Positions 16,934 to 20,565 of a stretch of DNA of 32,000 bases are shown here, piece after piece. The translations under genes and the position numbers were made by a program. Position 1 is the first letter of the stretch; each line of letters opens with the position of its first letter. The notes beneath the pieces were generated by a model. The model was not told the DNA's origin. It saw only the letters and a program-made list of their open reading frames with translations, and did not search any database. This DNA is from Candidatus Harpocratesius repetitus (GTDB taxonomy: Archaea > Asgardarchaeota > Lokiarchaeia > Sigyniarchaeales > Promethearchaeaceae), in the NCBI GenBank assembly GCA_021498095.1, contig JAIZWK010000001.1:750001-782000 (forward strand), read 5' to 3'.

Positions 16934-17473
16934 TTATGAATAATCTTTTTCATATACAACTTGACTGACTCTTCGTCTTCTAACTTGAAAATCATGATCT
17001 AATTGTGCTACAATTACATGTTCTGGATTTCCATGAACATATGAAATATCAACAACAGGATCCTTAGATTCTAAGACTAATTTTTTTGGAACTGGCATGA
17101 GGATAGGTTTTGATCCACACATGTTACATTCAATTAAGATATATTTAATTGATTTGGTTTCCTTTTTTGCTAAAATCCGCATTTGTTTTTTATCAATATC
17201 TACTTTAATTGGTTTTTTTTTAGGTGCTGGTGGAATTCCTAAGGTGGGATCTAATTTTTGATTCGATTTTGAAGATATTGAATTATTATTTAATTTAGTT
17301 GGAATTGCAAGTAGTTCTTCTTTTTCTTTAGAAATTTCATAATTTTTTAAGAACATAATAAAAACATTATCCCAACCTATTTCTTGCTCTTTTTGGGTTT
17401 CTTGTAAATCTTTTTTAATTTCCGTCAATTTTTCCCAGATTTCTTTCGTGACTGTAATTTTTTTTAAGGTCAT
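16934..17473 (-). CDS. Hypothetical protein: ribbon-helix-helix-like N-terminus plus putative C2H2-ligand metal-binding C-terminal domain
   Basis: KKITVTKEIWEKLTEIK...WDNVF resembles RHH. C-terminal CNMC...HGNPEH. Confidence 0.55.
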   Translation of the reverse strand: MTLKKITVTKEIWEKLTEIKKDLQETQKEQEIGWDNVFIMFLKNYEISKEKEELLAIPTKLNNNSISSKSNQKLDPTLGIPPAPKKKPIKVDIDKKQMRILAKKETKSIKYILIECNMCGSKPILMPVPKKLVLESKDPVVDISYVHGNPEHVIVAQLDHDFQVRRRRVSQVVYEKDYS

Positions 17474-17582
17474 TCCCTCTCTCACGTGAGTAATTACTTT
17501 TTTATAATGTAATTAAATTTTTTTATAATTTAAAGCAGTCGATAAATTCATTAAGTTACAACTCCATAATTATTTCGATTGT

Positions 17583-18083
17583 TTGATGAAACATATACGT
17601 TTAAGGAGTTTTCCAACAAAATGTCGTTATTGTGGGAAAATGATTCTTTATTGGGAAAGCACGCGTGGAGCAAAAGTTTTCTTTAATCTCCCTATTTATG
17701 GCAAACCAATTCGACACCTATGTCGAAAATCAAAAAACTTAAAAAATCCACCAATAATTAAAGAAACCGCTCTCGATCATTTAAAAAAAAAACTTGAAAA
17801 GCAGTCATTTCAATGCCCTGTTTGTGGAAAAATTTGTTCTACAGAAAAAGCTTTAAATAATCATATTCATCAAATGCAGAAATATGATGATCCTCATGCA
17901 GAATTCTCAGAAATGCTTGAGTTCATAGATTTTAATGAAAACTCACTAAACTTTAAATCTAATCCCCAAAGTTCTTTCAAAACGAATCATTCTATTAAAA
18001 CAATTCAAGACAGATTTATTTTAAAAACACACCGAAAAGAAGATAAAATCAAATTTGAAAATCTTATTAGGCGAAAGAAATAA
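17583..18083 (+). CDS. Double zinc-finger protein (CxxC...HxC and C2H2-like)
   Basis: CRYC...HLC and FQCPVCGKICSTEKALNNH...H. Confidence 0.65.
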   Translation: MMKHIRLRSFPTKCRYCGKMILYWESTRGAKVFFNLPIYGKPIRHLCRKSKNLKNPPIIKETALDHLKKKLEKQSFQCPVCGKICSTEKALNNHIHQMQKYDDPHAEFSEMLEFIDFNENSLNFKSNPQSSFKTNHSIKTIQDRFILKTHRKEDKIKFENLIRRKK

Positions 18084-18127
18084 ATTATAAACAACGAAAA
18101 AATACCCTAAATGGAGAAGTTAAAATA

Positions 18128-18772
18128 ATGCCTATCGATTTTGAAGGAATCTGTAATGAACTTTTCTCAAAACAACTTATTATTGCTGCTGTTGTTTCAA
18201 GAAAAAATGGAGAGATTGTATATATTTCCCCAAATTGGGAAATTGACCCCTCCGATTTGGCTCAGTGCATAAGTAAATGGCAATCTCATTCACAATTTTT
18301 AAAATTACAAGATGTTAAGTATTCTCTATTAATGAACACTGCTGAATATTTTTCGGGAGTTAACTATAAAGATCGCACTTTCCTTTGTGGTGCTATTTCT
18401 CCTGATCCAGAAGATCAATATGTAGTTATAGGATTTGCCCCTGCAGGGGTTGATGGAAGAAGTGCTTATGTTGATGTTGTACGAGCTGCAAACAAAATGC
18501 GTGAAAGTGGTTCTTATGTTGATGAATCTCAATCATTCGGAAAGTATGATGAAACTCCAGTTCAAGAAGGAACTGATACAGTTTCAGCAGCTAGTTCTTC
18601 TGGAAGTGTAAATCCCGCATTATTAGAGGAGATTAATGGTTTTCTTACGTGGATCAATGATCCAAATGGTCTTGCAGGATATATTCAGTATTATTTAGAT
18701 CAAAATGATGAGACTGTTTTAGCCAAGTTAGCACAAGCTTATCAAGATTTCAGAAATGTATTTGGTTTTTAA
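18128..18772 (+). CDS. Asgard profilin-like protein with C-terminal extension
   Basis: Residues 1-125 follow the Loki-profilin pattern as I recall it: helix, AVVSRKNGEIVYISPNW, LKLQDVKYSLL, two further strands, C-terminal helix. An acidic linker and a ~54-aa helical domain follow. Confidence 0.7.
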   Translation: MPIDFEGICNELFSKQLIIAAVVSRKNGEIVYISPNWEIDPSDLAQCISKWQSHSQFLKLQDVKYSLLMNTAEYFSGVNYKDRTFLCGAISPDPEDQYVVIGFAPAGVDGRSAYVDVVRAANKMRESGSYVDESQSFGKYDETPVQEGTDTVSAASSSGSVNPALLEEINGFLTWINDPNGLAGYIQYYLDQNDETVLAKLAQAYQDFRNVFGF

Positions 18773-18856
18773 ATGAAATAAATGCAAATTTTTTATTAAC
18801 AAATTTTCCTTTTTTTCAAGAAAACTATAAAAAAAATGATGTGGATTGAAATTAAC

Positions 18857-19537
18857 ATGGATTTAACCTTATATGTTAAGCACGATGACGATTTTGTCGA
18901 AACTGAGAAAGTCAAGCCCAATGAACTCTCTCTTGTACTGGACAAAGATAAAAAAGAAATTTTTGTTTATCGTCCAAAAGATCAAATTATCTATGATGAA
19001 TATGAATCTGAAGAACTATATAATCAAATTTTAAACAAATTTCTCAATCCAAATATCATTCTATTATCAAATCTTAAACCATCAGAAAATGAAACAGAAC
19101 AAATTCAAAAAATAAAGGAATTTATTCTTGCAGCCCAGCCTTCTCCTTTCTTGTTCAAAATTGGGAATTTTTTTCAAAATCTTTTTTTATTTAGAAAAAT
19201 TCGTCGCAATATTGAAATATTCCAAAATTATCAACAATCAGGTGTATGGCGTCGTCGACTATCTAATCAAACAAATCTCCGTAAATTAAGCATTTTTAAT
19301 GTTATTTTATCATTAATCATATCAATAATATCAATATTAATAATATTCTTAGCAATTAAACCTATATATTATTCTCATTTTTCCATAGAATCTCTTCAAT
19401 TTTGGTTGGAAAATTTAACAATATATGAAGGATTGATATTCTTCTTTTCACTTGTGTTATTATTTGTCAATTTCATTTTTGTATTGTTTCCATTGAAATT
19501 TCCAATTAAACCAAAAAAATATTCACAACTAAAATAA
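18857..19537 (+). CDS. Two-TM membrane protein with putative degenerate gelsolin-like N-terminal domain
   Basis: LYVKHDDDFVE...LVLDKDKKEIFVYRP...ENETEQ pattern. Hydrophobic stretches at aa ~151-174 and ~197-220 (track numbering). The CDS itself is well supported; the fold call is tentative. Confidence 0.45.
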   Translation: MDLTLYVKHDDDFVETEKVKPNELSLVLDKDKKEIFVYRPKDQIIYDEYESEELYNQILNKFLNPNIILLSNLKPSENETEQIQKIKEFILAAQPSPFLFKIGNFFQNLFLFRKIRRNIEIFQNYQQSGVWRRRLSNQTNLRKLSIFNVILSLIISIISILIIFLAIKPIYYSHFSIESLQFWLENLTIYEGLIFFFSLVLLFVNFIFVLFPLKFPIKPKKYSQLK

Positions 19538-19611: not shown

Positions 19612-20565
19612 TTGAATTTTAATTCGAATGCTTTGGGTAAATATTCTTCTTCAAATGATTTATTTTCAGAGAAATGTCCTTATTGCCTAAAAGAAGAAAG
19701 CATTGTAGATCCCCAACGGGGTGAACGAATTTGTTCGAATTGTGGTACAATTCTTGAATCAAGATTAATCGATTCTCAGGCAGAATGGAGAGATTTTCAT
19801 CAAGATATCAATAATTCAAGATCTCGGGTTGGGTTACCATCATCTTTAATACTTCATGATAAAGGTCTACCAACCGTAATAGATAGTCGAGATTATGATG
19901 CAAAAGGACAAAAACTATCACCTCGAAATCGTCAAATGGCTTATAAGTTAAGAAAGTGGCAGATACGTCTTAATATCCAAACTTCTAGAGATCGAAATCT
20001 CTCTATTGCAATGTCAGAACTAATTCGTGTTTCATATCAATTAAATCTAACAAAATTAGTTCAAGAAACCGCTGCTTTATTATATAGAAGATCTGTTGAT
20101 ATGAATATCATAAAGGGAAGAACAATTGAAAGTATGGTTGCTGCATCATTATATACATCTTGTCGACTATTAAACATTCCAAAATCATTAGATGAAATTT
20201 GTGATATAACTTCGGTAACAAAACATGATTTAAGCAAGAGTTATAGAGTAATTGTTCATTACATGCATTTACGTATACCAACGATTATTCCTGCTCGTTT
20301 TGTATCAAAATTTGCTCATGTTTTAAAAATATCTCCTGAATCTCAATATCAAGCAGCAAAAATTCTGCGTTTTGCTCAGCAAAAAGGTATTACTTCTGGG
20401 AAAGATCCAAGTAGTCTTGCGGCAGCATCATTATATTTAGCAACTCTTTTATCAGGAGAAAACAAAACCCAAAAAGAAATTGCTGAAGTTGCTAAAATTA
20501 CTGAGGTAACAGTTAGAAACCGCTACAAAGAGCTAATGAATTCACTAAACTTAAAAATTAATTAA
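19612..20565 (+). CDS. tfb: Transcription initiation factor IIB (TFB)
   Basis: Zn ribbon CPYC...CSNCG, EWR B-reader, two cyclin repeats (GRTIESMVAASLY; GKDPSSLAAASLY), TEVTVRNRY. Confidence 0.97.
   Translation: MNFNSNALGKYSSSNDLFSEKCPYCLKEESIVDPQRGERICSNCGTILESRLIDSQAEWRDFHQDINNSRSRVGLPSSLILHDKGLPTVIDSRDYDAKGQKLSPRNRQMAYKLRKWQIRLNIQTSRDRNLSIAMSELIRVSYQLNLTKLVQETAALLYRRSVDMNIIKGRTIESMVAASLYTSCRLLNIPKSLDEICDITSVTKHDLSKSYRVIVHYMHLRIPTIIPARFVSKFAHVLKISPESQYQAAKILRFAQQKGITSGKDPSSLAAASLYLATLLSGENKTQKEIAEVAKITEVTVRNRYKELMNSLNLKIN

Follow-up and report, generated by a model that had tools for sequence, protein, structure and literature searches.

An Odin-like profilin with a C-terminal three-helix domain, absent from Pfam and NCBIfam, that is predicted to self-associate

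The window analysed here is a whole stretch of 32,000 nucleotides (32 kb; G+C ~30%) and corresponds to positions 750001-782000 of a source genome that consists of one closed contig of 4,361,485 bp. It contains a gene for a profilin with an additional C-terminal module, which we refer to as the tailed profilin. This gene, its parts and its close neighbours are located as follows.

16934..17485, reverse strand: protein with a CxxC ... HGNP-H ... LDHDFxVRRRR C-terminal domain (recurs in the neighbourhood)
17583..18083, forward strand: small C2H2/zinc-ribbon protein of 166 aa (weak Pfam zf-C2H2 matches)
18113..18116, forward strand: GGAG, Shine-Dalgarno-like, 12-15 nt before the ATG (read from the sequence)
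18128..18772, forward strand: gene of the tailed profilin, 214 aa plus stop codon, ATG start (ORF list and translation)
18128..18502, forward strand: profilin domain, aa 1-125 (phmmer, AF2, Foldseek)
18503..18607, forward strand: disordered acidic/Ser-Thr linker, aa 126-160 (AF2, conservation)
18608..18769, forward strand: three-helix tail module, aa 161-214, with an F-G-F end (AF2, profile, homodimer prediction)
18789..18816, forward strand: T-rich stretch (T6, T4, T7) just past the stop codon (read from the sequence)
18836..19537, forward strand: putative gelsolin-like N-domain (~100 aa) followed by transmembrane helices (synteny, hhalign, profile)

Archaeal RNA polymerase stops at oligo-T, and the T-rich stretch behind the gene is a possible archaeal terminator. 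The three-part layout that the sequence-only reading had proposed for the protein (profilin, acidic/Ser linker and helical C-terminal domain) was borne out by the ORF, the orthologues and the AF2 model. The same architecture is kept in ~30 full-length homologues of 205-216 aa with 52-79% identity, which speaks firmly against a chance ORF, a frameshift or a mis-assembly; a fusion of ORFs through a frameshift or assembly error is ruled out by the collinearity of these ~30 orthologues together with the closed genome. All public copies that we saw are annotated as 'hypothetical protein', and two relatives carry a precomputed PF00235 label. B35_Pro2 of Lokiarchaeum ossiferum, accession UYP46280.1, is enriched in Co-IP (2025 Lokiarchaeum motility preprint). 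Among the cluster members no accession for L. ossiferum B35_Pro1 or B35_Pro2 was present, only MAG entries named 'hypothetical protein'.

A phmmer search against all PDB chains returned only two sequences, both of them Asgard profilins: actin-bound Odin profilin (5zza_P, E 1.1e-8) and a Thor profilin (7pbh_A, E 1.6e-7). The Pfam model PF00235 aligned with aa 1-125 over model positions 16-126 of 127 (E 0.005) at 17.4 bits, below its gathering score of 25 bits; such sub-threshold scores are usual for Asgard profilins. AF2 modelling of the full-length protein with an alignment of 31 homologues showed a pLDDT of 84-95 over residues 1-120 and revealed the secondary structure H5-14, E20-24, E30-33, H41-52, five strands over 57-104 and H110-122. 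The profilin fold has been described as an antiparallel sheet of ~7 strands between N- and C-terminal helices, in which a 3-strand motif replaces half of the central helix of roadblock proteins (Tran et al. 2024, PMC10933270). The AF2 model displays this topology, and the phmmer matches provide the corresponding sequence similarity. A Foldseek search against the PDB detected 53 matches below E 1e-3, and the best 50 of these 53 were all profilins, with 5zza_P at the top (TM 0.84, rmsd 1.9 A over 119 columns) and the Loki profilin-1/-2 entries next. Roadblock and longin chains, the alternative against which the sequence-only reading had set its profilin call, were absent from the best 50 of the 53 significant matches, and the call is supported. 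A roadblock/LC7 or longin fold is ruled out by the five strands that follow one another from helix 2 to the C-terminal helix, and is also countered by the listed Foldseek matches being profilins only. The N-terminal domain is a genuine, Odin-like profilin. The Asgard profilins characterised so far are single domains and bind actin. From its homology to profilins crystallised with actin (5ZZA, 5ZZB, 5YEE) we infer that Lokiactin monomers are its most likely ligand. The source genome encodes three proteins of the actin family, with the Lokiactin gene at G000:C1:377031-378140 on the reverse strand, and a single gelsolin, which has two domains (2DGel). Polyproline is bound by Heimdall and Thor profilins, but reportedly not by those of Loki and Odin (PMC8410842).

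Two more profilins, both lacking the tail, were detected in the source genome with a custom profile; the Pfam profilin model matched the tailed profilin alone, and weakly, so that the custom profile was needed for these paralogues. One of them, 127 aa in length, is orthologous to Loki profilin-1/-2 (5yed_A, E 2.7e-23). The other (L018:1375-1845, forward strand; G000:C1:850254-850724) is more divergent and ~127-156 aa long, has weak PDB matches (E 0.01 to Thor profilin) and may carry an N-terminal extension if an upstream GTG start is used. The tailed profilin is an extra Odin-like paralogue beside these two. Because the characterised Loki and Odin profilins work as single-domain proteins and the genome has two tail-less profilins of its own, the tail is dispensable for basic profilin function.

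The structures of Odin profilin (5ZZA) and of Loki profilin-1/-2 (5YED, 5YEE, 5ZZB) reportedly go back to Akil and Robinson in 2018. The tailed profilin shares their fold and sequence homology, with the KYS strand motif and the R-A-A-N motif of the C-terminal helix in common; these proteins are, however, single domains of 119-136 aa, to which the tailed profilin adds a linker of 35 aa and a folded module of 54 aa. Heimdall LC3 and Thor profilins (6YRR, 7PBH) possess N-terminal extensions (Survery et al. 2021, PMC8410842), which modulate ligand binding (PMC8410842), and are likewise Asgard profilins with a possibly regulatory appendage. A survey of 256 Asgard profilins, its alignment trimmed to 118 columns, described N-terminal extensions only, of up to 25 residues (PMC8410842). 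Whereas the Heimdall and Thor extensions are N-terminal, at most 25 residues long and disordered, the tail described here is C-terminal, folded and common to other protein families. In the 2025 Lokiarchaeum motility preprint, profilins are described by their likeness to Odin profilin, and C-terminal extensions are mentioned for gelsolins only. A published C-terminal domain on Asgard profilins was not found in the full-text literature searched, which comprised neither Akil & Robinson 2018 (Nature) nor Ponlachantra et al. 2023 (Bioessays). Within that literature, the tailed profilin carries a domain family that is described nowhere, in agreement with the earlier remark that the extra module was not known to have been described.

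The linker contains 7 D/E, 1 K/R and 12 S/T residues, its pLDDT is below 50 over residues 129-160 of the AF2 model, and its length varies between orthologues. The tail consists of helices at residues 163-177, 182-192 and 195-212 (AF2). Among 27 orthologues the mean identity is 38% for the linker and 70% for the tail, the latter being equal to that of the profilin domain; the mean entropy is 1.81 bits for the linker versus 0.83 and 0.90 bits for the flanking domains. Folded alone with an alignment of 50 sequences, the tail reached a pLDDT of 93.5. This value and the difference in identity between tail and linker indicate an autonomous module under selection. Its core pattern of ~55 aa can be written as E-x3-F-L-x-W-I ... 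G-L-x2-Y-I-x-Y-Y-L ... L-x3-Y-x2-(F/L)-x2-(I/V)-F, in which W175 and G181 are invariant across 50 diverse members. Pfam and NCBIfam searches with the tail alone revealed no family, only a chance match to UxaC (E 0.047). In a Foldseek comparison of the tail model with the PDB no match fell below E 9, and the highest Z that VIA-align assigned among 48,161 chains was 4.8, in the range of common arrangements of helical bundles. A shape search of the ESM Atlas detected only hypothetical clusters of Promethearchaeota (TM 0.70), and a feature search in the same resource gave no usable match. The tail defines a domain family that neither Pfam nor NCBIfam contains and for which the PDB searches gave no convincing counterpart.

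To analyse self-association of the tail, two copies were folded together in three runs with the tail's own alignment (A3), alongside 3 controls. The homodimer score was 0.64, and the best of the 3 controls reached 0.01. The score mark applied is reached by 20/30 solved homodimers and by 1/23 solved monomers, counts that hold here only roughly because the tail's own alignment was used, and up to ~19 in 100 monomers may reach it. The three homodimer runs agreed in at least 93% of contacts, with a partner pLDDT of at least 83, and recall of a known structure by the predictor is an unlikely source of the pass, since the searches for solved structures resembling the tail were negative. The predicted interface is symmetric and large, with ~91 contacts and 33 of 58 residues per chain, and packs helix 1 (I169, F172, W175) against helices 2 and 3 of the partner (I186, L198, L201, A202, Y205). 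Its conserved positions E168, F172, W175, L182, I186, L198, L201 and Y205 are mostly aromatic or aliphatic. For the helical positions of 50 diverse tails, the entropy was 1.49 bits at the interface versus 2.46 bits elsewhere (Mann-Whitney p 3e-4), a test that is confounded since the interface positions include residues kept as the hydrophobic core of the domain itself. Against a dimer, the prediction rests on the confidence that one structure predictor assigns to itself, and AF2 also gives a confident monomeric bundle for the tail. Altogether, the modelling supports homodimerisation of the tail; of the three roles suggested for the module in the sequence-only reading (a second actin-binding site, oligomerisation or partner docking), oligomerisation alone thereby gains support, in silico.

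A tail profile, which recovers the tailed profilin of the source genome at E 1.2e-33 (hmmsearch), was run on 301 Asgard genomes, a sample in which related genomes are not independent. It matched 6/6 genomes of the source family and 69/69 of a second family of the same order, 0/2 genomes of the other two families of the class, and gave one marginal match (E 4.6e-4) among 223 genomes of other classes. Most complete genomes of the order have two or three copies of the tail, typically one or two tailed profilins and a stand-alone copy of 52-54 aa. Its match in every sampled genome of the order, together with a conservation equal to that of the profilin fold, makes a decorative role of the tail unlikely.

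Searching 1.84 billion representative proteins with the tail profile returned 59 proteins, of which the weakest few, including two very long short-repeat proteins, look spurious. Their architectures, read from the sequences and a Pfam scan, are the following.

Profilin, acidic linker, tail: P0001 and orthologues
Profilin, Lys-rich linker, tail (second paralogue, ~221-246 aa): P0061, P0076
Ras-family GTPase, polyproline linker, tail: P0046, P0047, P0055
GTPase, tail, gelsolin repeat, start of a profilin: P0063
LRR, tail: P0065
Tail, polyproline, profilin, zinc ribbon: P0052
Stand-alone tail of ~50-90 aa: many short proteins

Two additional architectures come from the genomes: a 474-aa protein with GTPase, polyproline, zinc ribbon and tail, and the 728-aa protein with zinc ribbon, profilin and tail described below. 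Some members of the family combine GTPase, polyproline, tail, gelsolin and profilin in one chain (in P0063 the start of a profilin). Large tail fusions are rare, with 3 open frames above 300 aa among ~150 listed genome matches. The residues that form the predicted contacts are kept in every architecture class, including the mini-protein, which makes cross-pairing of different tail-bearing proteins plausible. Polyproline is the classic profilin ligand in eukaryotes, and the proteins with GTPase, polyproline and tail may for this reason be profilin clients as well as tail partners. In the source genome the stand-alone tail is a 52-aa protein with an F-G-F end (G000:C1:2015320-2015478, reverse strand; L008:1498-1656). 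In 6 genomes of both families this mini-protein lies between a DEAD-box helicase and a divergent zinc-finger protein of the DnaJ type (CXXCXGXG); the helicase (888-970 aa, with DUF5814) is encoded downstream on the same strand.

Several further features of the family were observed. Small CxxC zinc ribbons and stretches of polyproline link the Ras-family GTPase to the tail in L073:814-2238 (forward strand; G255:C172), P0046, P0047 and P0055. A 728-aa protein (L072:91-2277, reverse strand; G192:C47) consists of a zinc ribbon, a profilin-like domain, a degenerate tail and Lys/Pro-rich KKPPKVVFTE repeats, and ends in a long helical C-terminal region of no known family. The second paralogue of the tailed profilin, with the Lys-rich linker, is preceded on the same strand by a conserved protein of 460-478 aa without Pfam match in 4/5 genomes checked (L062:3735-5117, reverse strand; L065:1082-2518, forward strand).

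Our favoured reading, in which we place somewhat more than even confidence, is that the tailed profilin is a profilin paralogue, here of a Lokiarchaeia-type Asgard archaeon, made bivalent by a dimerisation or docking module, or joined by it to other tail-bearing proteins. The 54-residue tail, held on a disordered acidic linker of ~35 residues, would pair with a second copy, and the resulting dimer would be bivalent, presenting two profilin heads for actin monomers on flexible tethers. If the tail also pairs across proteins, profilin-actin could be brought to other tail-bearing proteins, and the free mini-protein of 52-54 aa could act as a competitor. Small portable helical modules that join signalling or cytoskeletal proteins by self-association include SAM, PB1 and the dimerisation/docking domain of PKA RII; the tail would follow the same logic, whereas no homology to them was detected and, in the genomes searched and one marginal match aside, the tail is restricted to one archaeal order. 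Against this reading, fusions with GTPase, gelsolin and LRR domains are rare, the characterised Loki and Odin profilins work as single domains, and the genome has the two tail-less profilins described above.

An extended form of this reading, which we regard as tentative, takes the tail as a homo- and heterotypic docking domain that would connect profilins, Ras-like GTPases, LRR proteins and proteins with gelsolin domains in a single hub for actin assembly in this Lokiarchaeia-type order, titrated by the free 52-aa copy. If true, such a hub would be a prokaryotic counterpart, in its logic, of the coupling from GTPases to profilin-actin through formins and WASP in eukaryotes.

It is unlikely that the tail is instead an actin-binding headpiece. 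Such a headpiece would attach laterally to Lokiactin filaments, or to a second monomer, and profilin, GTPases and LRR proteins would thereby be anchored to the cytoskeleton. Like the villin headpiece (PF02209), the tail is a small module of three helices that forms the very C-terminal end of an actin regulator and is preceded by a flexible, here disordered, linker, and it is fused to two kinds of actin binders, profilin and gelsolin. Binding to the side of actin has also been proposed for domain X of Thor 1DGelX, which is described as a predicted coiled coil attached to a gelsolin (Akil et al. 2020, PMC7444086). Compared by its description only, domain X is likewise an Asgard-specific helical C-terminal appendage of an actin regulator. 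The villin headpiece, however, binds F-actin as a monomer, whereas the tail is predicted to self-pair and has no sequence match to it: when aa 150-214 were scanned with Pfam, even a limit of E 10 yielded no villin headpiece, only the chance UxaC match. The fold searches showed no clear match of the tail to any fold. The villin headpiece is not among the rows listed by VIA-align, a listing in which the absence of a family does not count against it, and an entry for the F-actin interface of alpha-catenin/afadin reached Z 4.0, no better than dozens of unrelated rows. Also against a headpiece, the most conserved residues of the tail lie in the predicted self-interface, and the stand-alone copy adjoins the genes for the DEAD-box helicase and the DnaJ-type zinc-finger protein rather than actin genes. 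A headpiece would be compatible with dimerisation, and a dimer of this kind could bundle filaments.

The neighbourhood of the gene bears on another proposal. The flanking genes are archaeal, with TFIIB at 19612-20565 and PanB, DUF72 and ApbA upstream. In both families, the gene immediately upstream of the tailed profilin encodes a homologue of the small zinc-finger protein. Downstream follows the membrane protein, whose start is likely the ATG at 18857, ~27 nt past an A/T-rich TATA-like box. Its closest named relative is a protein of 'Candidatus Harpocratesius sp.' with 89% identity. In L004-L006, and in at least 8 genomes, an orthologue of the membrane protein is encoded immediately after the tailed profilin. 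The soluble N-domain of the membrane protein covers about aa 8-110 (window 18857 to ~19170). Alignment of this N-domain with the first domain of the 2DGel of the same genome by hhalign gave a probability of 56% (E 1e-4), in register. The profile of the membrane protein also matches single-domain proteins of 83-109 aa, which are gelsolins of the Odin type; in 2 of the 3 that were scanned the Pfam gelsolin repeat scored just below its cut-off, and the 83-aa protein matches PDB chains of adseverin, villin and gelsolin at 3e-6 to 5e-5. These sequence comparisons are suggestive of a single gelsolin/cofilin-type domain at the N-terminus of the membrane protein. To our knowledge, no membrane-anchored gelsolin-like protein has been characterised so far.

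A 307-aa protein of a distinct family (L053:138-1061, reverse strand; G165:C6) displays a gelsolin-like N-terminus followed by several transmembrane helices. A Pfam scan of this protein gave no gelsolin match, and similar open frames of ~290-320 aa occur in several genomes. These sequences suggest a small family of membrane-anchored gelsolin-like proteins in these archaea. The CxxC ... LDHDFxVRRRR domain, for which no Pfam or NCBIfam family was found, is fused to the membrane gelsolin-like protein in L004 (391 aa, L004:5771-6946), a hint, of the Rosetta-stone type, of a functional link between the two. In L005 a separate gene of 147 aa just downstream probably corresponds to this domain, judged by gene order only, and in 3 genomes of one genus the domain lies directly downstream of the tailed profilin (L067:3389-3892).

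The tail might accordingly serve to dock its proteins onto some other partner that they have in common, such as this gelsolin-like membrane neighbour, which would place profilin-actin at the membrane; we consider this quite unlikely. The membrane gene follows the tailed profilin in the source family and in part of the second family, wherever the profile detects it, the N-domain of the neighbour looks gelsolin-like, and a module common to several otherwise unrelated proteins would fit recruitment to a hub. However, the whole region is syntenic, with PanB, DUF72, ApbA and TFIIB conserved too, so that adjacency is weak evidence of a functional link, and some second-family genomes have an aspartate-semialdehyde dehydrogenase gene at the downstream position instead. 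Between the two genes lie T-runs and a TATA-like box, which suggest separate transcripts and a promoter of its own for the downstream gene; co-transcription as a firm claim was rejected on these grounds. Docking to such a partner is compatible with dimerisation of the tail.

Improbable is a role of the tail in membrane targeting by its aromatic residues, as a stand-in for the lipidated C-termini that are missing in Asgard small GTPases. Asgard Rabs have no C-terminal extension (Tran et al. 2024, PMC10933270), the tail contains 9 aromatics in 54 residues, and its position at the C-terminus of a Ras-like GTPase past a long linker is reminiscent of the hypervariable region of prenylated eukaryotic Rab and Ras proteins. 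The module is, however, acidic (7 D/E versus 2 K/R), which is unfavourable for anionic lipids, and it is predicted as a compact bundle with its aromatics buried in the core or the dimer interface. Most improbable of all is an intramolecular role, in which the tail would fold onto the profilin domain of its own chain and cover the face that binds actin or ligands: although the linker is long enough to reach any face and ligand binding by Heimdall and Thor profilins is modulated by their N-terminal extensions (PMC8410842), the full-length model (pTM 0.57) has a disordered linker and shows no confident docking, and the module also occurs on non-profilin proteins and alone.

The reading of the tailed profilin as a paralogue made bivalent, or joined to other tail-bearing proteins, by its C-terminal module would have consequences beyond this gene. 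A dimeric or GTPase-joined profilin would give an answer, testable at the bench, on placement and signalling coupling without formins, WASP and Arp2/3. The tail family also labels a set of 'hypothetical' proteins as probable cytoskeleton-linked factors, and the tail may be how these Asgard relatives of eukaryotes join actin regulators together.
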